A stretch of DNA of 63,234 nucleotides, counting the filler, from Reticulomyxa filosa (Eukaryota; Protista; Foraminifera): the NCBI GenBank assembly GCA_000512085.1. It is 24 parts of 24 records of this genome, joined end to end, with 100 filler letters (N's around TTAATTAATTAA, not from the genome) between each part and the next. Parts side by side here need not be neighbours in the genome. Positions count along the whole stretch, not along the records: positions 51,661 to 54,823 come from ASPP01008678.1; 23 more parts are not named here. The stretch is one strand, 5' to 3'. Below are positions 19,973 through 61,140 of this stretch, piece by piece. Position numbers and translations under genes: made by a program. The notes under the pieces are model-generated. The model did not search any database and was not told the DNA's origin. It saw only the letters and a program-made list of their open reading frames with translations. Positions within the stretch are counted from its first letter, which is position 1, and each line of letters opens with the position of its first letter.

Positions 19973-21508
19973 CTACTGTTGCAGTAAAATGGTTGACTTA
20001 TCCTTTGAAGTACGTTTACTTTGTGTATCTTTGCGGTTGGTATCAGCCTGGTATTCTTCAGAGAGTTCAAGTGATTTATGGTCCTCATCCTTGTTATCAT
20101 CACGACGATCTTCTTGGAGTGTTGGTTTTTTGCTTTGGACGGGGTGTGTTGGAACATCGGGCATATCAGAGTCCAGCTCATCCAAGTATTGCTGAGTCAG
20201 CAAATCTTCATACTCCTTGTCAATCACAGCATCATCCACATCAGTCGAGACTTGCAAAGGCGTGCTCAATCGATCACTTACATCTTTGTTTTGAGCCGCT
20301 ATATTTTCAAAATTTCCCATCATTGCATCGATCTCTTCTAAAGAAGGTTGTTCCGATGTTAGTTTCTTAAATATTTCATTTGCGGCTTTCATTTCGCGGA
20401 ACACCTTAATTTTAATATCAACAAATGTATTTACATTATTATATAAATGTACAGTATAATATATAAAAGTATATAAACCAAACCATTTGATTTGTTTCAA
20501 TGTCATTAATATGTTCGATAATGTTTTGGAAATTGTGAATTTGTTGTTGAAAGCGTGCTTGGCGACCAACGAGAAGCTTTTTACGGTTGAACGTGCTTTG
20601 GTATTGTCGAAGGATATCTTTGCACGCTTGAGCACGAGGATTGTCGTATTTATGTTTATACTTTTCAATGGCTTGTTGGGTCACGTTGAGAATAAATTCA
20701 GTCAGTTGTTTAATCTCCTCGCCCATATCGTCTTTCTGTTGTTCCAAATATATGATCATCAGTTTCAACGACATCTGTCTCATTGCCTTTTCCTCGGCGT
20801 CTGTGATCTCACCCCAGCCAAATTTTACATCTTTTTTTTTTTTATAGTATTTCATTTGACAAAAAAAAAAAAAAAAAAATTTCTTTGTGATCAATCCAAT
20901 AAAAAAATCACAAGAGTATATATATACATATATATGTATATGTATATGTATATGTGTATATAAACATACGTATACTATTTACAAAAAAAAAGACACAAAA
21001 TGGACCTCATTTCTCAAAGAAGAAGGATGGCGTGGAAGTGCGTTGACAAATGTAAAGACAGGCGATTGTGTTTGAAACGATTCGTGTTTGACGTCGGTGG
21101 CATCTTTCAACAAAGCAGTATTGCGTTTGGAAGCATCATCTTCGAGATGGTTGTGATGATAGCCATTGAAGTGGATGATTTGAATACGCTGTTGGGACTG
21201 CAAATACTGTTTGACGAGGATAATGTCTTGGTCGGTGAGTCGAAACAAGTCCTTGCATAGTCGATGGAACACGATGCTGTTGAGAATCACCTGTCGCGAA
21301 TTGATATGATGAGAGCTGCGTTTCCTCTTCTTACCACCACTATTACTACCATTACTATTTTTGGTCACAGAATGGCAATTGTCCATCAAAGGCGAAGACA
21401 TGTCCATTTGCTCGACAAACACACCAGCCGAGCATAGTTCATCCAATTCAATCTTCTCAAACGAGTTCATATCGCTACTTTTTCTGGGTTTCTTTCGACT
21501 AGCATTGG

Positions 21509-32375: not shown

Positions 32376-33905
32376 ATGCCTGATTCAGTATCTAATGTCG
32401 AACGCAAAGATATTTGCCAAGTTATTTGGTCCACGACAAAATCAATTTTATTTAATCATCTTCTATTGATTGGGTTGGTATTAGTGGTGATATTAGGCGC
32501 AACAGTGCCTTCCATAGGTCACAAAGGAGGCCCGTTGAAACCTGAAATAACAACAAGCTGGTTATGTGTGATAGTGATATTTTTTAATAGTGGCCTGAAT
32601 GTAAAGACTCAAGAGCTTGCTCATGCGGCCTTGTATTGGAGATTGAACATATTTGTTCATTTTTTTGTATTTGTTTGGTACCCTGCGATAGGATTTGCCT
32701 TGGTCAGTATTTTGAAAGCAACGACAACGATATCGGTTGCAATGTTAAATGGCTTGTTAGTGACAACATGTTTGCCGACAACCATTAGCAGTGCTGTGGT
32801 GCTGACAATGAACTGTGGTGGAAATGAAGCAGCAGCCATCATTAACACAGCATTAACCAACGTGATTGGTAAGGGTGTGAAAACATAAGTGTTAAAAAAA
32901 AAAAAAAGGGGGATCGAAACAAAAACAAAAAAAAATGTAGGCATAATGGTAACACCAGGATTGGTGCTATTATTGCTAGGTGGAGGAAGTGGAATCGACA
33001 TTAAAGAGGTTCTATTTTTGTTGATGATGAGAGTATTAATACCATTTGTGATTGGTCAGTTGGTTCGAAGCCTGTATTGTCCGCTTTGCCGTCGTAAGGC
33101 TGATACGTATAACACGTGTTTGAAATGGCAACTACAAAAAAAGAATAGTGCGACCACGATATTTCACATGGATAAATTCATTGGCAAATTCAAATCACAG
33201 AGTAAAGTTTTGAATGAAGTACTGTTGCTATTAATTGTATTGACAGCCATTAGTGAGTTATTTTATTCGGGCGTGGATGCATCCTTTTCGGACATTGCTA
33301 TTACATTTTGCCTTGTTACCATCTTGCACATACTCACTTTAGCAATCGTGTGGTTTGTTTTTCCGTCAATATCTCTTTTTTTGTTTATTGTAGCTTGTCT
33401 TATATATATGTATACATTGGATGCATATTTAACCTCTTTTTATAGGGGCATTAGCTCTATTTCACAATGCCAGAAAAAGGACAACCTACAAGATCCTACC
33501 GCAATGACCTCCAACAGCCAAGATAACAAACAGTTTTGGATTCAAACATGTTTGTTTATTTATTTATTTGTTAGTAATGAATGGTTTGTGCACTTAAGGA
33601 CGAGTTGGTCGCAATTTACCTTTGGTGATCGTGCGGCAATGTTGTTTTGCTCCTCTCAGAAAACAATTGCCTTTGGTGTACCAATGATATCGACGTTATA
33701 CCAAAACAAAACTGATTTGGGAATTTATTTGGTCCCTTTGCTCTTATTCCATCCAATGCAGTTAGTTGTTGACTCCTTTCTTGTTCCAGTGCTTAGAAAA
33801 AAAATTCAAAATGCGCAAATACAAGCCAATATTCTACCTTTGAAAGAATATAGCATTGAGATGAGTGCGCCTAATTCTGATTCTAGTCAAGAACGGCTAC
33901 AGTAA
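32376..33905 (+). CDS. SLC10A7: SLC10A7/RCH1-like sodium:bile-acid symporter family (SBF-like) transporter
   Basis: IFFNSGL, CLPTTISSAVVLT..CGGNEAAAIIN and FCSSQKTIAFGVPM...PLLLFHPMQL. Intron at 32869-32940; possible extra in-frame introns at ~33365-33445 and ~33554-33598. Confidence 0.9.
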
Positions 33906-44469: not shown

Positions 44470-46806
44470 GTGATAGTGTCACCACAAGAGCATGAAGCAA
44501 TAACGAAAATATACGAGCGATACAATCGTGCGAAGCAATTGTTGGCAGAACTGGACCGAAGTGTGAGCGCCATGGAAGAGCGCAAAACCCAATGCAAAGA
44601 CCAAATCACCACCCAAATGACAAAACTCGTGCAACAGTTGGAAAACAAGAAAACGTATTTGATAAGCGAAATGAGCAACGTGAAATTGGAAAAGAAAAGC
44701 AAGTTGCAAAGACAATTGAATGATTTGAATAGCTATCGTGACGCCATTAATGAGGTTAATTTTTATTATTATTATTATTTATAATATGTATACATTAAGG
44801 AATATTTACATACTAAGGCAACATAATGTCGCATGCAAAAAAAAAAAAAAAAAAAAAGGGGGAGAAAAAGTTTTTTTAAATTAAAAAAAAAAAAAAAAAA
44901 GGGGAAACGAAGATACGAAGAGTGGATTGGCGATGAATCATTGGATGTCCATTTGAGACGTCGAAAAGTGATACAGTTGGCCAATAGCATACTTGATTCA
45001 AAGCCGTCGATGGTGATGGTGACACAGCCCAATGTCAAGTTTGCCTTTGACGAAGCGACCTTGAAGAAATACCTCTCACAAATCATTGTCGATGATTGCG
45101 ATCAGCCGGGCGCCCCCACTCTTAACATTGTCAAGATTCTTCACAATACTGCTGAGGTAAAATGCAAACAAGCATAGCAATAACAATTATACATATACAT
45201 ATACATATACTTATACTTATACTTATACTTATACATATATAAAAAAATAAATAAATATATGTAGATAAGCTGGACAATGCCAATGAAAGATCTTCAAAAA
45301 ATATTGTTTGCGTTTGCAATCGAAATTGCGTTTGTGAAATCCGTAGAAAAGACAAAAAAGAAAAAAGAGAAAAAAAAAGACAAGAAAAAGAAAAAAAAGA
45401 AAAGAAAGGAACAGCGACGCGAGTGACTCCAACTCGAGTGAGTCATCCGATGATGACGACAGCGATGAGTCAAGTGAAGAAAGTCCATCGGAAGAAGAAG
45501 AAGAAGACGACGAGGAGGCCAGCGGCTCTTCCTTTCGGATAAAGACAAGGACGATGAAGATGATGACGACGACGAAGACGAGAAGGAAGACAAAGACGAC
45601 TCGTCGTCTAACAGCGACGACAGCGATAACAAGAAGGAAGAGGTCGCCTCTTCGTCGCGACTTAAACGCAATCGAATCGCTCCGGTCGACAAAAAAGAAG
45701 ACAACGAATACGTTATCGAAAAAGTCGACGAAGGCGCCGATCTGGTCTCTGACAAAGATGGCAAAATCAAAACATTGGAATGGACCGTCTCTCAAATCGT
45801 TTCTGTTGACAAACTGCCCAAAGGAAAATTTTTGTGGACTATCCGAGTTTAATACGAAATATACATACATATATGTATATATTTGTATTTGTGTGTTATT
45901 ATATTATTATTGCTTATTTATACATACATGTATATATATATATATATGTATATATGTATATATTGACTGACTAATCTTTGGACAGAAATTGAAACCAAGA
46001 AGCGTCTATTTGTTGCGAATGAGAGCGAAAAATTCCAGTGGGTGGGGACTATACAGTTTCCCTGCCACTCAGCTCGTCACAAAGGACTGCGATATTGAAA
46101 GCAAGATTTTGAAACCGAAAGAACAAGAAATGCTGTCGAAATGGATGCCAAAGAAATATACTCAGAAAAAGTGGAAGCTGCTACTTCGCGCCAGCAAAGA
46201 TGGCTTTGATTCTGCCACTTTCCATCGCAAATGTGATAACAAAGGGCCGACTGTCGTTATTGTGCATAGCCATTTGGGGCATGTATTTGGAGGGTATGTT
46301 TTATTGCTTTTACACTCTGAGAAAGAAGCACGATACGAGAGGAGAGAGATATATTTATTTTAATATTTTTTTTCTTAAATTAATTGATCGTACAAATATT
46401 TATTTGATGCACGTTACAATAACCTCTATGTATACGTACACCTATAAAAATATATATGTACATACAAACATTTGGTTACCGAAAAATGAAAGGTATTCTT
46501 CGGTGTCTTGGACTTCTGTCAACAATTATGCCAACGACAGCAATGCATTTATCTTTTTATTGAGAAGTTCTCGTGGAGAGAAAGGCAAGTATACATGCAA
46601 AAACACTGGCAATGCGGTATATCATCACCAATCTTACGGTCCGACCTTTGGTGGTGGTTTTGATTTCTATCTTTGTTCTGGCTGCAATTCCACCAGTGGC
46701 TCTTATTCCAATGCTGGATATAGCTTCAACTGTGCTTCTGATCAAACCTGCTTGCTGGTGCTTACAATTTTACTGTCAAGGCTACGAAGTATTCCTTTTG
46801 AAATGA
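44470..46806 (+). CDS. Coiled-coil + fibronectin type III + TLDc domain protein (5' truncated, 5 exons)
   Basis: FN3: PGAPTL...AE|ISW ... LKPRSVYLLRMRAKNSSGWGLYS. TLDc: WKLLLRASKDGFDSATFHRKCDNKGPTVVIV...VFGG|YSS..W...DSNAFIFLL...YGPTFGGG. Introns at 44755-44901, 45157-45264, 45847-45985 and 46294-46492. Small indels in the low-complexity insert and the last exon. Confidence 0.88.
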
Positions 46807-47211
46807 TCTTCTCTCTTCTTATTCTTGTTTGTTCAACAGTGCACTTGCAGAGAAAAGTAAAACAATGGTTGTCTTTTGTTTTTAAGACAGCTTTATGGAA
46901 CAAAAAATGTGTTCTCTTTTTTGTATTGTGAATATGCCTTGGTGTTATAAATTTTGGGCGATAAAAAGTCTTGGTCCAAACAGTTATAATTTTCAAAATA
47001 CATGAAAAAAAAATCCACTTATTCCGGCTTAACTTTCTGTGCAATTTCTTTCTTTCATTGAGTTCCGCCACTTTTATCACAATAAAGTATTTTCGTCTTT
47101 GAAACACGTATTCTGTATTGTTTTTTCAACAAAACAGAACGGAAGGAGGAAAAAAAAAGGGGGTAATCGTGTTCACTTTGTTTGAGTTGTTTTAATAATC
47201 ACAACAATATA

Positions 47212-47772: not shown

Positions 47773-48715
47773 CTCCAATGACATTCACACATGTACCATT
47801 CTCAGTCAAAACTGCAGTACCAGAGCCCAATGGAATAGGCAAAGTATGTTCAAACATCGTCCATTTGTCTTCTTCAATAGAATATTTGTGCACTTTGTTT
47901 CCCCATTTTCCGAAATCCATTCCGCCAAAAAATAGTACATTATTGTCATTAACACGTACATATGCATAATCATTAAGATTTGCAATACTGTCACAAACAG
48001 ACAAGCGATGGCCTTGAAATGTATTTCTGTCTTCATCATATTCAATTAACAATCCTGTCTTTTTACAAAATAACAGCATTTCATTCTTTTTTTGATTTCT
48101 GTTTTCACGTCTGGAAATAAAACAAGGGTATTGAATATAATCGTCAACTAGAAAAGTACTACGATTAATATATTTAAAAGTATTTAAATTGAATACTGCA
48201 ATACTTTTTGGAGGATAGGTAATAAACAATAAATGATTATTGCTTCCTCCAATTAACGACCTTGCTCCGGTGTAGTCGTCTTCTCCTCTTTCCATTTGAA
48301 TTGGATTGTTGTGTTCATCAACTAATGGTTCCCATTTATTGAAAGCCTTATTTGTAATGATATTCATATTCCCATCATCATCCCAAACACTCTTATAATA
48401 CATTCGCAATATATTTTTGTTTCTACTCCTCCTGCCACCAAAAGATAACAAAGTGATATCATTTAATATTTTATCGTTGTTATTGCGCACATCTGCCACC
48501 ACACAGCGCACATCTGTCACACAGTGCACATCCATTTTGGTATAGGAACAAATTGATTTGTACTGCTTTCTAATCATATTGTATGAAAAGCATTCGCTTT
48601 CTGGGTCGCTTCCACAAAGCAGCAATTCTTTTTTGTACACCACGCATTGACTACGACGTAGTGAAACTGGCAAAGAAGGCAATGTTTTAAATCTAGTGAC
48701 AGTTTGCTTTGCCAT
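47773..48715 (-). CDS. Kelch/galactose-oxidase-type beta-propeller protein (lineage-expanded family), 3' truncated
   Basis: ELLLCG, LLSFGG, SLIGGSNNHLLFITYPP and VLFFGG...KYSIEEDKW...LPIPL repeats. Confidence 0.85.
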
Positions 48716-49235
48716 AGTTGTTGGTAACGTCAAAAACCTTTGGCAATTTTTTAAGTAAATGGAAACAAAAAAACTGTTTTTGGAAAAACAGAGCCAAAGG
48801 GAATCAGTAATCATTGTAGTTTATTATGTGATTATTTTTAATTGAAGTAATGATTGAACAATTACAAGAANNNNNNNNNNNNNNNNNNNNNNNNNNNNNN
48901 NNNNNNNNNNNNNNTTAATTAATTAANNNNNNNNNNNNNNNNNNNNNNNNNNNNNNNNNNNNNNNNNNNNTTGACAAGAGTGCTGATAGGTCTCTTTTGG
49001 GGGCTTATCGGCGTTTTTTTTTCATTTGTAGTCGGATCATCTTTCTTTGGATCTCTATTTTTGTGATATAACCACTGTTTTGTTTTTGTTTTTTTTTTTT
49101 ACTTGTTTTTTTTAATATTTTCGTTTTACACTTAGCATTCAAAAAAACATTTTTCTATTGTCGTTTGCAAAACTAAACTGCACATGTCCTGAAACTGTAT
49201 TTACTTGGGAATTCAAATCAAATTGGTCTGTATGT

Positions 49236-51660: not shown

Positions 51661-52986
51661 TTTGTCTTCCAATCGATCATTTGTGGCTTTCATTAACTTG
51701 TCATATTTCAATTTGTCGTGTTGTCCAAGATCAATTCCTCTGCCAATGGTTATTCCAGACTTTTCACTAGGCCAATGAGGTACACGACTAAAGTTTGGTC
51801 CTTTCTTCTCTTGACCTTCCGCAAAAAACGTCAGAGGGTACTTATCCGGTATATCAGAATCTTGTAAATCTTGGTTTCCTGTTGTTTTTTTTGTAATTGC
51901 ATATCCATCACTGCCTTTACCTCTTTTGGCTTCCCCAAAAATCTTATTTTTTGGAGCATTCAAAACATCCTTCAGCAAAGACGTCGCTGCATGATCTGCT
52001 TGCGCATTGCGTGCGTCGTCCTTATTTGTCGTGTACTCTTTTCCGTTCCAAAGAAACGTATGACCTGGTCCTAATTCTTTGTGCGCTTGTTGGAATGCCT
52101 CTTTGAAGGTGCCTTTATACTCTTTTGGAGCATTGCTTTGCAATGTGTTCGCAGCAGCTTGCTTGCTTTTAACTGACTCTGTTTTTTCTTTCTCTGCTTT
52201 CAAATCTCGTTTATCATCTCGATCTGTGGTGTACTCTTTTTTGTTCCAAATGAACGTATGGCCTGATCCTAATTCTTTATGTGCTTGCGCAAATGCTTGT
52301 TCGAAATTTCCAGCGTATTCTTTGCGAGAATCACTTTGTGACGTATTCGTAGTTTGTTTGCTTTCGCTTGATTTTGTCGCGGGCTCCGTTTCTTCTTTAG
52401 GTTGCGTAGCTGGTTTTGTCGTTGGCGTTGGCTCCGCTTCTTCTTTAGGTTGCACACCTTTTTTTTTTTCTCCTTCTGCTTTCAAATCTCGTCCATCATT
52501 TCTATCTGTTGTATACTCTTTTTCTTTCCAAGTGAATGTATTGCCTGAACCTAATTCTTTATGTGCTTGTGAAAATGCTTGTCCAAAACTTCCGGCGTAC
52601 CCTTTGGGAGAATCGCTTTGTGATGTGTTCGTAGTTTGCGCACTTTCAACTGATTTTACTGCTGGCTCTGTGTCTGCTTTAGATTGCACACTTTCACCTG
52701 ATTTTACTGCTGACTCCGTGTCTGCTTTAGATTGCACACTTTCAACTGACTTTACTGCTGACTCTGTGTCCGCTTTAGATTGCACACTTTCATTTCCTTT
52801 CTCTGCTTTTATATCTCTCCCATCGGCTCGGTCTGTGCTGTATTCGCTACCTTTCCATTCGAATGTTGCACCTGCTCCCTGCTTATTATGCTCTTCTGCA
52901 AACGTCTCACCAAAAGTTTTTTCATGTCCGGTGGAAGAATTTGTCGGCTCGTCCTTTGACGTATCATTTGAAGCGTTATTGCCCAT
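51661..52986 (-). CDS. Putative N-myristoylated, repeat-containing pesticin-like muramidase (phage-lysozyme-like toxin domain); 3' truncated
   Basis: Intronless ORF starting MGNNAS, with four copies of F..AF..AHKELG.G.TF.W..KEYTTD. C-terminal FAEG...FSRVPHWP...SGITIGRGIDLG matches the pesticin C-terminal muramidase signature. Confidence 0.85.
52640..52790 (-). repeat. 48-bp coding tandem repeat (ESVQSKADTESAVKSV), ~3 copies
   Basis: Visible in the protein and in the DNA (gctttagattgcacactttca at 48-nt spacing). Confidence 0.95.
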
Positions 52987-54430
52987 TGGAAATGAATAAA
53001 TGCAGAAAACAAGAAAGTAAATCTTTTGAAAAAAAAACTAGCTAATTAAAGTGACTTGCTGTCGTTGTAGGAAAAAAATGAAATTTTTGATTAATTTTAA
53101 AAAATAAGTAACGGAGATTAAAAAATTACTTAAAGTCTTACAAAAGTTTCTGGTTTAACACAACATGAAATGAAAAGCTTTTCAAAGATTGTGCGGTTAC
53201 TGCACAGTTTAGAGAAACGTAATTATTTCACATGTACAAGCAAGTATTCATCGAATAAACAAAGTATGAAGTATAAAAGTTTTATTATAATCTTTGGCTT
53301 TGAAGAACTGAGAAATTCTCAGTAATAAGCCAACGTATAAATAGAAAAGGGTCAGACTTTTTTTCAGTTTGTGTACTTTGGTAATATTTCTTCATTCGAA
53401 TCGAGTTAACATAACAGCTCAATCAATTCCGTTCTAAATTTATTTAACTTGTTATATATCTTTACAGAGATTAAACTAAAAAATCCAAAGAAAGCCCAGA
53501 ATGTAGTAAGTAAAGGAAAAATATTACTTTAAAATTACAAAATTGGTGGACACATTGGAACTTCATAGTAGCATAAAGCGACAATAGAAGAAGGATGTTA
53601 AATCACAATTTGCAAGACATGTTGGTACTTTTTTCTAAATGCTTGGAGAGAGTAATGATTTTCAGGCAGAAATTTGTGTTATTAATGATGACAGTACGCT
53701 TTCAATGTCATTAACCAAGTGATATAAATGCACATATATATATAATAAGCTGTAACACTAGAAATGAATGAAACTCATTTCAATTTATGTATACACATAA
53801 GGATGATTAAACAGATACAAATTTATTTTGTAGAAACTTTATTTAATGTTTTTATATATGCTTAATATTGGATATTTTTTATTTATGTGTGTATAGTAGC
53901 TACTAACAGTATATAAATACACATTTTATAAAGATAATTGATTTTTCAATGAAAGAACAACACTTAATCAATTTTTTTCAAAGAAATAAATACTAATCGT
54001 ATAGTTTTTAAATATCGCTTTTGCTTTCTCTTTTATCTAAAAAAATATAAACTACTTCATAACCACAATCATTCAATTATCATTGGAAAACATGAAAAGC
54101 ACAATTAATTTAAATGAAGATAATTTTAGAGCAGTGAGTAATTGCAGTATAAATTATGAATTGCATGTTACAGTTACTTTTAAAAAGTTTACAAATTAGC
54201 GTGCAGTGTAGCAGAAATCATATTTAAAATGCATAAAATATTTATGATGATTGTTACTTATTAACAAAAAATCTTTTATATTTCAAGCAAAATTAATTTT
54301 ATTAATATAGTAATCATTCACGAACAAAGTGACAGAAGGAATGCTATTTGAATTAAAAGTGGATATATTCAATTCACATTTTAAAGTATTTCAACTCTTA
54401 AATTAATAAAAAGATTGAAGCTGGATGAAA

Positions 54431-54823
54431 TTATTTGTAGAGTCTATTAAATGGTTTTGGATCAATTTTTTTAATATCATCTAATGATAATTCAATACCA
54501 TAGATCGCAATTCTTCCTTTTCCACCTTTATTTCCTTCATCTTGATTTCCTCCAACACATGTAATAGTTCCAAAAGTTTGTTTCAATAATTTTGAATGAG
54601 ATTGAGGTTGATATTGACGTTGTAATTCAATTAATATTGATCCTCCACTTCCACCACCACTAGAGACTCCACCTCCTCCATTGGATTCAATCGAACCATG
54701 ATTAATCAATTGCTGTCCAATTATCAGTTCAATTATCCCACCACCACTTCCTCCAAGAAAAAAACGATAGCTGCCTCCACCACTTCCAAAATGAATTTCT
54801 TTCAACAAAGTCTCTTCTCCATA
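54431..54823 (-). CDS. Gly-rich hypothetical protein, C-terminal fragment of a lineage-expanded family
   Basis: ETLLKEIHFGSGGG...GGSGGGIIELII...NHGSIESNGG...GGSGGSILIEL...GGKGRIAIYG; AT-rich codon usage like host genes. Confidence 0.7.
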   Translation of the reverse strand, partial: YGEETLLKEIHFGSGGGSYRFFLGGSGGGIIELIIGQQLINHGSIESNGGGGVSSGGGSGGSILIELQRQYQPQSHSKLLKQTFGTITCVGGNQDEGNKGGKGRIAIYGIELSLDDIKKIDPKPFNRLYK

Positions 54824-58205: not shown

Positions 58206-59412
58206 CCTTTGGAAAAAGGAGAACAAGTAATTCGAAAATCACGCTATGGCACAATCGATTCATTCATATCTTCTTGCGATTGGCTGAAGGAGGAATACAA
58301 TGACAGTCCACTAGAAATAAACAAGGATTGCTACGATCGCTTGAAAGATGCTGGCATTGATGAATTGATGACTCGACACATTGCGCACTTATTTATTCGG
58401 GATCCATTGGTCGTGTATTCAGATCTAATCGAAATGGATGATGCCACTAGTGTTCATCACTTTGAAGTCAAGTTTTTTATTATTATTGGACACAGGGACA
58501 GGGACTTTGACACGTTTGCAAATGCAACTTGCTTTGTGTGACAACAGACTATCCAATCCACAAATTGGCACAATGTCCGCTTCAAACCTCCTTCCAATCC
58601 TAACACAGGATGGCGTGTGGAGTTTCGTCCACTGGAAATTCAATTGACAGATTTCGAAAATGCTGCTTTTGCAATATTCGTAACTCTATTGTCCAGAGCC
58701 ATATTATTTTTCGGACTAAATCTATATATTCCCATTTCCAAAGTTGGTTTCTTTTCTTTTCTGCTTAGTTAGACAATGTTATAACAAAACATGATGGGAT
58801 CATTGCCTCCAAAAAAAATAAAATAATAAGTTGGATGAAAATATGCAACGAGCGCACAAAAGAAATGCTGTTCGCAATGAAAAATTTTATTGGCGTACTT
58901 GCAACAAAAGAGATGGTGAATTGGCTATGGCAGAACTGACTATTAAAGAAATTTTTTGTGGATCAAAAGAAACAGGTTGTCTGGGCTTGGTTACAATTGT
59001 CGAAGAGTATGTCAAATCAATTCAACTGGATGACGAAACTGGAAACAAAATAGCAGAGTATATTGCACTAATCAAAAACAGAGCAAACGGAAAGCTGTTA
59101 ACCACAGCCGAATATTTGAGAAACTTTGTGAATAATCATCCCTTGTATAAATTCGATTCGAACGTTAGCGAAAGCATTGCCAGAGATATAATTGATTTGG
59201 TCGTTGGGATTGCCCATGGGACAGTGAAGGTAAGACCTTTTTTTTCTTTTTTTTTTCCCTTCCATTATAAGAAAGTATGGCGGTCACTGTAGGCTCCAGA
59301 ATTGCTTGGTGAAGGGGTGGATATTGGGTTGCGTAGAAAGGACAGCGTTAACACGTGCGATCCATTAAAAGGATGCGACAACCGAAAAGGATTACTAAAA
59401 TCACGTTTGTAA
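58206..59412 (+). CDS. GCLC: Glutamate-cysteine ligase catalytic subunit, 3' exons
   Basis: [18 protein letters not shown]|[41 protein letters not shown]|[11 protein letters not shown] and [20 protein letters not shown]. Introns at 58467-58547, 58743-58830 and 59230-59292; stop at 59410-59412. Confidence 0.96.
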
Positions 59413-59627
59413 TCCATGAATTAAATTCTTTTCACTTCAAAAGGCATTTTTCCTTGTTGTCTTTTTTTTTTTCTTCCTTCACAATTTTACAGTTCTTGCA
59501 TAACAACCACAGCAAAAATGGTTTTTTTGTGGGTTCATCTCATCCAATAAGTTTTTTCAAGGGGACCTACTTATCTTATTTCAAAATCTTGTTGAGTTTT
59601 GAAAGTTTCTGTTTACCTTATTGTTAC

Positions 59628-61140
59628 ATGTCCCGCAAAAGATCTAAACCAGATACATGTGATTCGAATGGACAAGAGTCAGTGTCCAAAAAGCGCCGAC
59701 TTGATCCTTCTGTGACTGTGTCAACAAAAATTTGGAGGATCGAAGAGCCAAAGTCGGGAGCACACACAAATGGCACTTCAATTGATCATAGCACAGAACT
59801 GTACAAGTACTACAAAACATTGCCAGAAATAATAGAAGCAGGTGAACTAATCAAACAAGGGGAATTGGTGGCATTTCCAACGGAAACAGTATACGGTTTA
59901 GGGGCCAATGCCTTGGATGATAAAGCCTGTCAAAAAATATTTGTGGCAAAAGGTCGTCCTTCGGATAATCCATTGATAGTTCACATCTGCGAATTTGAGC
60001 AATTGGACGATTTAACGAGATCACTTAACGTGACAATCCCAGAAGTGTTGCTGCAACTCGCCAAACACTTTTGGCCCGGGCCTTTGTCAATCGTGATTCC
60101 TCACTTGTCTTTGGATAATTCCGAAGAAAATTCCAAAGAAAATTCCAAAGAAATTTCCGGCGATAACAAATCTACATTTACAACAGGAACAATATGTAAA
60201 ACAGCAAGAGCAGGCTTATCTTCAGTGGCGGTAAGAATGCCCTCGCATCCAATTGCAAGAGCGTTGATATACGCAAGTAAGGTGCCGATTGCAGCACCGT
60301 CGGCAAACACTAGCGGTCGTCCCTCGCCGACGTCGTCGCAGCACGTGCACAAGGACCTGTTTGGGAAGATTGCGGGGATCATTGATGGCGGCGACTGTGT
60401 GTGTTCAGTGGGTTTGGAATCGACAGTGGTGAAGCTGAGAAGTAGAGACCAGCAAGGTGCAGAGTCAAATGGCAATGCAAATGAAAACGAAAATGGAAAA
60501 GAAGAGAGTGATAACAAAAAAGAAGAACTCGTAATCCTAAGACCGGGCGGCATTACGCTTGAAATGATTCGAGAAGTTGTGGACACTGACAAATATAACA
60601 TTACATATGCCAAAGAAGTAAGCACGCTATTTGAAACATCTGGAGTCCAATGTCACGAGGAAGATCCGCATTTCGTGGACGACAACGTCTCTGCTCAGAG
60701 CCAGGTCGACCTCAAACCAGAGGCCCCTGGCATGAAGTACAAACATTACTCGCCCGAAAAACCGCTGTACTTGGTTGCCAACGATAAATTGCTCCAAGAC
60801 ATTCTGGACGTTCTGTCCAAACAACACAAGACGGTCGAAATTGGCGTTTTGGTGAGTGACGAAAACCATGTTCGACACAACACCAAATATCAACATCTAC
60901 CGTGGATAAATATACACTGTTGGAACGCGCACTGACATGAAGAGCATCGCCGCTAATATGTTCAAGGGGTTACGAGATTTGGATGAAAGCGAGCACTGTC
61001 AACTTATTCTCGCTGAAACTTTTCCACTCAAAGACATGGGGGTTGCTGTTATGAACCGTTTGACAAAGGCTGCTTCTTGTCGAATGGTTTCTTCTTTAAG
61101 TGATTTAGTCAAGTTTAAAATTATTGATAATTTGAATTGA
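59628..61140 (+). CDS. SUA5: Threonylcarbamoyl-AMP synthase Sua5 (YrdC + SUA5 domain); 1-nt frameshift at ~60907-60918
   Basis: VAFPTETVYGLGANA, KGRPSDNPLIVH, FWPGPL, VAVRMPSHP, AAPSANTSGRPSPT, GLESTVV, ILRPGG and APGMKYKHYSP. The C-terminal IAANMFKGLRDLD...GVAVMNRLTKAA is in the +1 frame. Confidence 0.96.

Follow-up and report, generated by a model that had tools for sequence, protein, structure and literature searches.

The stretch of DNA analysed here (the window, 63,234 nucleotides) carries an open reading frame, P0001, that we read with a probability of roughly 55% as a genuine gene of the foraminiferan Reticulomyxa filosa, encoding a pesticin-type muramidase of probable bacterial derivation behind four copies of a module whose likely targets are bacteria or the bacterial wall. 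The encoded protein is laid out as an MG start, four modules, flexible linkers and a catalytic lobe holding Glu, Thr and Asp. The window consists of 24 separate contigs of R. filosa, joined by artificial N44-TTAATTAATTAA-N44 linkers, and the features of the contig with P0001 are as follows.

51661..54823: contig of the gene, 3163 bp, with artificial N/TTAATTAATTAA linkers at its ends
51661..52986, minus strand: open reading frame P0001, 442 codons, 3'-truncated by the contig end; NCBI gene RFI_11910 (P0002)
52969..52986, minus strand: MGNNAS start, predicted N-myristoylation signal (Gly2, Ser6)
52822..52914, minus strand: module copy 1, core at residues 25-55
52632..52807, minus strand: low-complexity linker of 16-aa (48-nt) tandem repeats
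52495..52587, minus strand: module copy 2, core at residues 134-164, predicted helix plus two-strand hairpin
52213..52305, minus strand: module copy 3, core at residues 228-258, dN/dS 0.24 against copy 2
52015..52107, minus strand: module copy 4, core at residues 294-324, dN/dS 0.13 against copy 3
51661..51834, minus strand: N-terminal quarter of the pesticin-type muramidase domain, residues 385-442
51817..51819, minus strand: E390, predicted catalytic acid, in an E-G pair invariant in alignment A2
51788..51829, minus strand: 42-nt GT-AG stretch, in frame, encoding the conserved motif around E390
51748..51750, minus strand: T413, counterpart of pesticin T201 by profile alignment
51730..51732, minus strand: D419, counterpart of pesticin D207 by profile alignment
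52987..54430: AT-rich spacer, 1444 bp, 25% GC, with no ORFs and no operon neighbours upstream of P0001
54431..54823, minus strand: 3' end of a Gly-rich gene (P0006), family unknown, on the same contig as P0001

The frame is open from 52986 to the contig end at 51661, with no stop codon and no interruption, indicating that the muramidase domain is cut off by the assembly. An earlier, sequence-only reading had quoted the C-terminal peptide and the codons of E390, T413 and D419, and we recovered all of them at exactly the same coordinates. Its assignment of the domain to the pesticin-type, T4-lysozyme-like family is borne out by profile scores, by the E/T/D residues in the motif E-G ... G-x-T-x-G-x-G-x-D, by profile matches in the PDB and by the predicted fold of a relative (P0022). 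The Pfam Pesticin profile it pointed to (PF16754) does match residues 397-440 (E = 7.5e-4, 19.9 bits), but the score falls below the curated cut-off of 25.8, because only positions 15-64 of the profile (50 of 156) are present; a family profile of our own, made from 99 relatives, gives 60.2 bits for residues 385-434. On the latter profile the fragment covers positions 6-56 of ~205, the first quarter of the pesticin-type domain, and ~150 codons, about three quarters of the enzyme domain, are missing from the contig.

A search of 1.84 billion representatives returned 92 matches, among which 14 have the catalytic motif without the module repeats; all 14 match Pfam Pesticin, five of them above the cut-off. 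When a profile of 24 motif-sharing relatives (alignment A2) was compared with the PDB, each of the 8 matches was to pesticin (best E = 0.006), and the Thr and Asp of the P0001 family aligned to T201 and D207. Pesticin E178 lies outside the printed alignment, and we infer that E390 is its equivalent. Pesticin E178A, T201A and D207A are inactive mutants according to their PDB titles, and the excerpted text of PMC9927483 likewise gives E178, T201 and D207 as the three catalytic residues. All three are kept in 97 of 100 family rows, across which the E-to-T spacing varies from 22 to 31 residues. The spacing had been described as that of pesticin, and 23 residues do separate E from T in both proteins; the agreement is nonetheless coincidental, since indels offset each other (E390-H404 is 14 and H404-T413 is 9 in P0001, E178-H185 is 7 and H185-T201 is 16 in pesticin).

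The best identity of P0001 to any relative is 52% over 64 columns. The nearest full-length relative, P0022 (71% identity over 41 residues), was folded as a proxy, from an alignment that included the P0001 fragment. The model reached a pLDDT of 94.5, and its top 11 Foldseek hits were pesticin, followed by T4 lysozyme; VIA-align gave Z 14.8 and rmsd 2.9 over 171 residues against pesticin and Z 10.6 against T4 lysozyme. Structure prediction thus puts pesticin first, for the proxy rather than for the truncated P0001 itself. With phmmer, neither the 73-aa fragment nor P0022 gave any hit among PDB sequences (0 hits), and only the profile reached pesticin. The complete enzyme, with its ~150 further codons, would probably be active on peptidoglycan.

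The public annotation departs from this picture at the catalytic motif. The NCBI model of RFI_11910 takes the 42-nt stretch 51788-51829 as an intron and so lacks 14 residues including E390, while the model of a second copy (RFI_34175, P0003) retains the E390 stretch but lacks 7 residues around the Thr; both models end at residue 433. With these catalytic-motif residues deleted as tiny in-frame introns, the match to Pfam is lost. Since both stretches are in frame and form the best-conserved part of the pesticin family, 51788-51829 is probably coding and the NCBI intron false. The gene had also been called intronless; we read the 442-codon frame in the same way, whereas the NCBI model splices out 51788-51829 together with E390.

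It is improbable, in our view, that P0001 is a decaying or truncated relic of a host gene, in which the muramidase would be incomplete or its Glu stretch spliced out, leaving a repeat protein without lysis. Such decay would agree with two gene models that each lack part of the motif and stop at residue 433, with the deletion and decay seen in the paralogues, with the very long branch of P0001 in trees and with the residues after D419, which fit the family weakly (8 of 200 shuffles score equally high). It agrees poorly with a 442-codon frame that is uninterrupted, with E390, T413 and D419 all intact, with purifying selection on the modules, and with two NCBI models that disagree on the intron although both stretches are in frame and best conserved.

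That P0001 resides in the Reticulomyxa genome appears very probable. A near-identical second copy, RFI_34175, lies on a 799-bp Reticulomyxa contig and lacks an internal segment, and the paralogue RFI_00395, on another Reticulomyxa contig of 3400 bp, is decayed; with the second copy deleted in part and the third decayed, the family may be dying. The contig of the gene correlates in trinucleotide composition with the other window contigs at r = 0.78, the 11th value from the bottom among the 24 contigs, which range from 0.37 to 0.95. Across 80 bacterial loci the median is 0.42 and the maximum 0.81, and the six of them that are AT-rich give 0.28-0.45. The GC3 of P0001 is 0.31, and that of ten other ORFs in the window 0.13-0.53. 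By tblastn, nothing among 50,697 records of phages and 72,556 of plasmids matches P0001. Eukaryotic families, GAS and Snf7 among them, are found on other contigs of the window. The earlier claim that the gene belongs to a protist genome is therefore probable from the paralogues, the host-like composition and the module subtype, and the surroundings described then, AT-rich non-coding DNA with no bacterial operon neighbours, are those we find in the gene-free 1444-bp spacer of 25% GC. Elsewhere in the window, ordinary genes (GAS, Snf7, SBF-like transporter, TLDc-like, Kelch-like and Sua5) occupy positions 1856-2893, 19973-20668, 32889-33905, 46200-46931, 47773-48814 and 59355-60935.

The neighbouring Gly-rich gene, offered earlier as host-type, does share the contig with P0001, but the searches do not bear out a host type: it has no Pfam match at the cut-off, and most of the Atlas clusters closest to it are bacterial. 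Its GC3 is 0.13, its look-alikes are bacterial Gly-rich repeat proteins, and no second copy exists within the window. A contig that came from a bacterium, symbiont or virus of the culture, or that is chimeric, would account for such a neighbour. A Midichloriaceae symbiont (Rickettsiales) was sequenced together with the Reticulomyxa culture, as reported in the excerpted text of PMC10847448, the contig is short, and P0001 has no certain or proven intron, while the portion consulted of a Rhizaria-wide gene-transfer preprint puts introns in 69% of prokaryote-derived Reticulomyxa genes. We nevertheless consider this origin very improbable, given three copies in the assembly, one of them decayed, a host-like composition, the 1.4-kb gene-free spacer, and a module subtype that is otherwise known from a diatom, from the transcript of a protist and from a genome with introns. 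Moreover, the module profile found nothing in 251 genomes of the phylum Bacteroidota (a search without a positive control) and one marginal partial match in 401 genomes of the alphaproteobacterial class (also without a positive control). The pairing of module and pesticin domain occurs in none of the best 80 bacterial or 61 viral loci: the module is absent within 4 kb of the former, and the pesticin domain is absent from the latter.

Among GTDB genomes, 233 of the 247 pattern matches encode relatives, and the best 80 come from Myxococcota, Bdellovibrionota, Bacteroidota, Pseudomonadota, Planctomycetota and Cyanobacteriota; viral contigs gave 6 weak pesticin-like loci. Because all named relatives of the enzyme domain are bacterial, the domain was likely taken from bacteria. 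Two donor trees were built, a quick one of 100 rows and a careful one of 40 of those rows, and P0001 is a long branch that falls in no supported group of either. It was grouped with P0004, which has the same module-plus-pesticin layout, in 0 of 200 bootstrap trees, and the AU test of a clade of the two gave p = 0.33; such a grouping is neither rejected nor supported. Phylogeny with bacterial homologues, as suggested by the sequence-only reading, thus returns bacterial relatives but leaves P0001 itself unplaced, with no nesting in a supported bacterial clade.

The same reading had called the gene a candidate domesticated bacterial toxin. Membership of the pesticin family stands, but descent from a bacteriocin or injected toxin finds no counterpart in the delivery domain or immunity gene that would mark it: Pfam, NCBIfam and PHROG detect no bacteriocin or T6SS delivery domain (translocation/receptor or VgrG) in the N-terminus, and the 1.4 kb upstream, without ORFs, holds no immunity gene, the other flank lying beyond the contig end. 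Pesticin (PF16754; PDB 4AQN/4EPF) and the VgrG3cp-type T6SS effectors share with the P0001 family the motif, the E/T/D residues and, in the modelled relative P0022, the T4-lysozyme-like fold; unlike them, P0001 has no translocation/receptor domain, VgrG or nearby immunity gene, and it further differs from pesticin in its loop lengths, its eukaryotic setting and its N-terminal module array, its domain being incomplete in the assembly. P0001 is thus a pesticin-family domain and not a bacteriocin, and resembles a domesticated lysozyme with a binding arm. VgrG3cp needs a peptidoglycan-binding part beside its catalytic domain, as stated in the excerpted text of PMC9927483.

The most novel part of P0001, absent from the earlier reading, is the four-copy N-terminal module. 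It is ~35 residues long, Phe, Phe, Gly, Phe and Thr in it are invariant, and its copies are separated by low-complexity linkers. An AF2 model of copy 2 consists of a helix and a two-strand hairpin (mean pLDDT 80, core 88-90). Among the copies, dN/dS is 0.13-0.24 in two of the six pairs; the remaining four are saturated at synonymous sites. From these codon comparisons the modules are under purifying selection, and since dN/dS reaches only 0.24 and 0.13 and synonymous sites are saturated, the copies appear old and selected as protein.

In P0001, no family in Pfam, NCBIfam or PHROG corresponds to the module, and profiles of known cell-wall-binding modules (LysM, PG_binding_1/3, SH3b, SPOR) do not match it. 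Its fold was compared as a 52-residue model, which does not exclude a family: none of 48,161 PDB chains resembles it at Z>=2, and in BFVD it resembles unnamed phage proteins only (best E = 0.017). The module sequence profile gave two chance-level matches in the PDB, and an Atlas search with copy 2 gave no usable match. A Tae4 (Pfam) hit on copy 4 (E = 0.056) was rejected as chance.

A profile search for the module matched 158 proteins, and the best 120 of these were examined. After three proteins had been dropped from the tree and the counts (P0002, the same gene as P0001; P0095, a duplicate of P0012; and P0030, spurious), a module tree of 210 rows and 47 columns placed all four P0001 copies in one 39-row clade (SH-like 96), which includes two phage-like rows (P0084, P0156). 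With the three Reticulomyxa proteins P0001, P0003 and P0008 left out, a library-supported muramidase or endolysin accompanies the module in 11 of 30 clade proteins and in 4 of 141 outside (p = 7e-7), where all but one spurious match were scanned for partner domains; after de-replication the counts are 9 of 24 and 3 of 74 (p = 1e-4). The C-terminal domain of P0029, which has no library support, was counted as no muramidase, and the goose-lysozyme-like exon ends of P0005, P0009, P0018 and P0116 were kept out of the main count; counting such ends outside the clade gives 9/24 against 6/74 (p = 0.0015). It should be noted that nine muramidase fusions had seeded the module profile; among 12 clade proteins newly found by the profile there are four fusions, all in families already seen. 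The module recurs on six muramidase families, five besides the pesticin type, which are listed here with the proteins that carry them.

Complete pesticin-like domain: P0004, module-plus-pesticin layout as in P0001
GH108: P0036 and P0040
SLT/GH23: P0012 and P0122
Phage_lysozyme2: P0019, from the diatom Thalassiosira exigua
PHROG-873 endolysin: P0033, P0104, P0115 and P0117
GH24-like: P0026 in the clade; P0011 and P0035 outside it

P0115 is an MMETSP protist transcript with a hydrophobic N-terminus, and matches the PDB endolysin 7Q47 at E = 4.5e-15. P0115 and P0117, which both join the module to an endolysin and have a signal-like N-terminus, carry D-E-M as their last residues, perhaps a signal of the retention type. 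In four of five metagenome loci, three of which are one gene, the module is split by a GT-AG intron of 60-64 nt, in two variants; the exon ends inside the last Arg codon of the module, and the frame resumes after the intron with D-L-R-A-E-R, as in unsplit members. One intron-split gene with the module lies on an animal-like contig. The intron-split loci are direct evidence that the module occurs in eukaryotic DNA.

Proteins of other make-up carry the module as well. A phage subtype, ending in R-A-D-D-K, occurs once in each of the Lys/Pro-rich low-complexity proteins of 61 viral loci (L001-L061), and one locus of the clade's subtype was found on viral contigs. A third subtype (P0010, P0020, P0027, P0028, P0045 and relatives) belongs to acidic proteins anchored by a hydrophobic segment at the N-terminus; in P0010, three copies precede a weak match to a TonB-receptor plug, which would place this subtype in the bacterial envelope. 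P0038, P0042, P0106, P0108, P0110 and P0179 are ~120-150 aa long, with one module and a conserved His/Trp-containing C-terminal domain that has no Pfam or PHROG match and is, by module walking, a candidate new cell-wall-active or binding domain. P0029, of a 31-member cluster, has two modules; its C-terminal domain resembles a lysozyme on visual inspection, without support in libraries or the PDB. P0005, P0009, P0018 and P0116 have an M-G start, one to three modules and an end resembling the N-terminus of goose-type lysozyme (P0009: PDB E = 0.25), and are probably first exons of intron-split genes.

Most module-bearing proteins, being of the phage type or the acidic membrane-anchored types, have no muramidase, and the module therefore does not need one. 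This bears on a further alternative, which we regard as unlikely, namely that gene and muramidase are as we propose but the module works within the host's own cell, in sorting, in oligomerisation or in binding membranes or nucleic acids, instead of binding bacteria. The same fold in Lys-rich phage proteins (61 viral loci) and in acidic anchored proteins, in both cases without lysozyme, speaks for such a role, as do the 19 of 30 clade proteins that show no muramidase and the lack of a structural match to any known binding domain. Many of those 19, however, appear to be gene pieces that end at introns (P0085 matches the exon in L145), and repeated fusion to six families of peptidoglycan hydrolases, and to no other enzyme recognised by Pfam, is the pattern of a substrate-targeting module. 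A module that binds bacteria or their wall is accordingly the reading that we prefer. The four copies may act as a multivalent docking arm on bacteria, comparable to LysM or SH3-type cell-wall-binding domains, a role to which we give slightly less than even odds.

In eukaryotes, antibacterial enzymes acquired by horizontal transfer mostly carry signal peptides and are secreted. P0001 departs from this in having no signal peptide, together with a predicted myristoyl start: no signal peptide or membrane helix was detected anywhere in it (maximum 19-aa hydropathy 0.14), and MGNNAS is presumably a myristoylation-type start under the myristoylation rule. An M-G-x-x-x-S/T start is present in 5 of 30 clade proteins, four of them convincing, against 3 of 141 outside, these three all being goose-lysozyme-like fragments; some other members of the clade have signal-like N-termini. 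The absence of a hydrophobic stretch and the MGNNAS start suggest a membrane-tethered protein that faces the cytoplasm. A myristoyl anchor would hold it on the cytoplasmic face of membranes, and the complete enzyme would cut the MurNAc-GlcNAc bond of peptidoglycan, as do pesticin and T4 lysozyme. Its targets could be bacteria in the cytoplasm (symbionts, or bacteria escaped from food vacuoles), unless the protein leaves by non-classical export; we see an even chance that it acts through this tether in one of these two ways rather than in the vacuole lumen. Prey lysis or defence had been proposed as its function: lysis of prey in vacuoles fits poorly, because there is no signal peptide and the start predicts a cytoplasmic-face anchor, and control of intracellular bacteria, or non-classical export, fits better.

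Bacterial or phage peptidoglycan hydrolases kept in a eukaryote, as probably in P0001, are described in the excerpted texts on antibacterial GH25 lysozymes acquired horizontally by eukaryotes (PMC4241558), the GH19/GH25/GH3 antibacterial toolkit of Trichomonas (PMC12612818), phage lysozymes kept in bivalves (PMC5303276) and the horizontally acquired antibacterial enzyme Dae2 of ticks (10.1101/2020.04.10.036376). These enzymes belong to families other than the pesticin type, and their activity, expression and donor have been shown, whereas P0001 is a predicted enzyme. A closer parallel to the module lies in fungal muramidases, in which, as the excerpted text of PMC10394673 reports, one accessory module is common to different families; that module is SH3-like, whereas the one in P0001 is predicted as a helix and hairpin of ~35 residues, resembling no PDB chain at Z>=2. 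Both follow the logic of module walking. Our literature searches turned up no report of a eukaryotic pesticin, nor of the module, which has no name to search by. The main text of the Rhizaria gene-transfer preprint mentions no pesticin, lysozyme, muramidase or peptidoglycan, and its supplements could list the gene. Antibacterial gene transfer to eukaryotes is known, and what appears new is the eukaryotic pesticin fusion and its module.

More broadly, and tentatively, the repeat may be a domain for binding bacteria that has not been described before. Distantly related eukaryotes (a foraminiferan, a diatom, further protists and probably animals) would have grafted it repeatedly onto muramidases of six or more families, each acquired separately, and the myristoylated versions, P0001 among them, would form a cytoplasm-facing antibacterial system of protists. 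If so, following the module from protein to protein would bring new cell-wall enzymes to light. It offers a route to enzymes that are not annotated, as two module-bearing families have C-terminal domains of no known family, and public annotation hides P0001 itself, whose catalytic-motif residues are deleted as tiny introns in both NCBI models. The module is also a possible new cell-wall-binding tag. The pesticin family would join the few bacterial cell-wall enzymes that eukaryotes are known to have kept, here in a lineage with a known intracellular symbiont. Moreover, the module marks predicted lysozymes across distant eukaryotes, and so offers a testable way into the recognition and killing of bacteria by phagotrophic protists.
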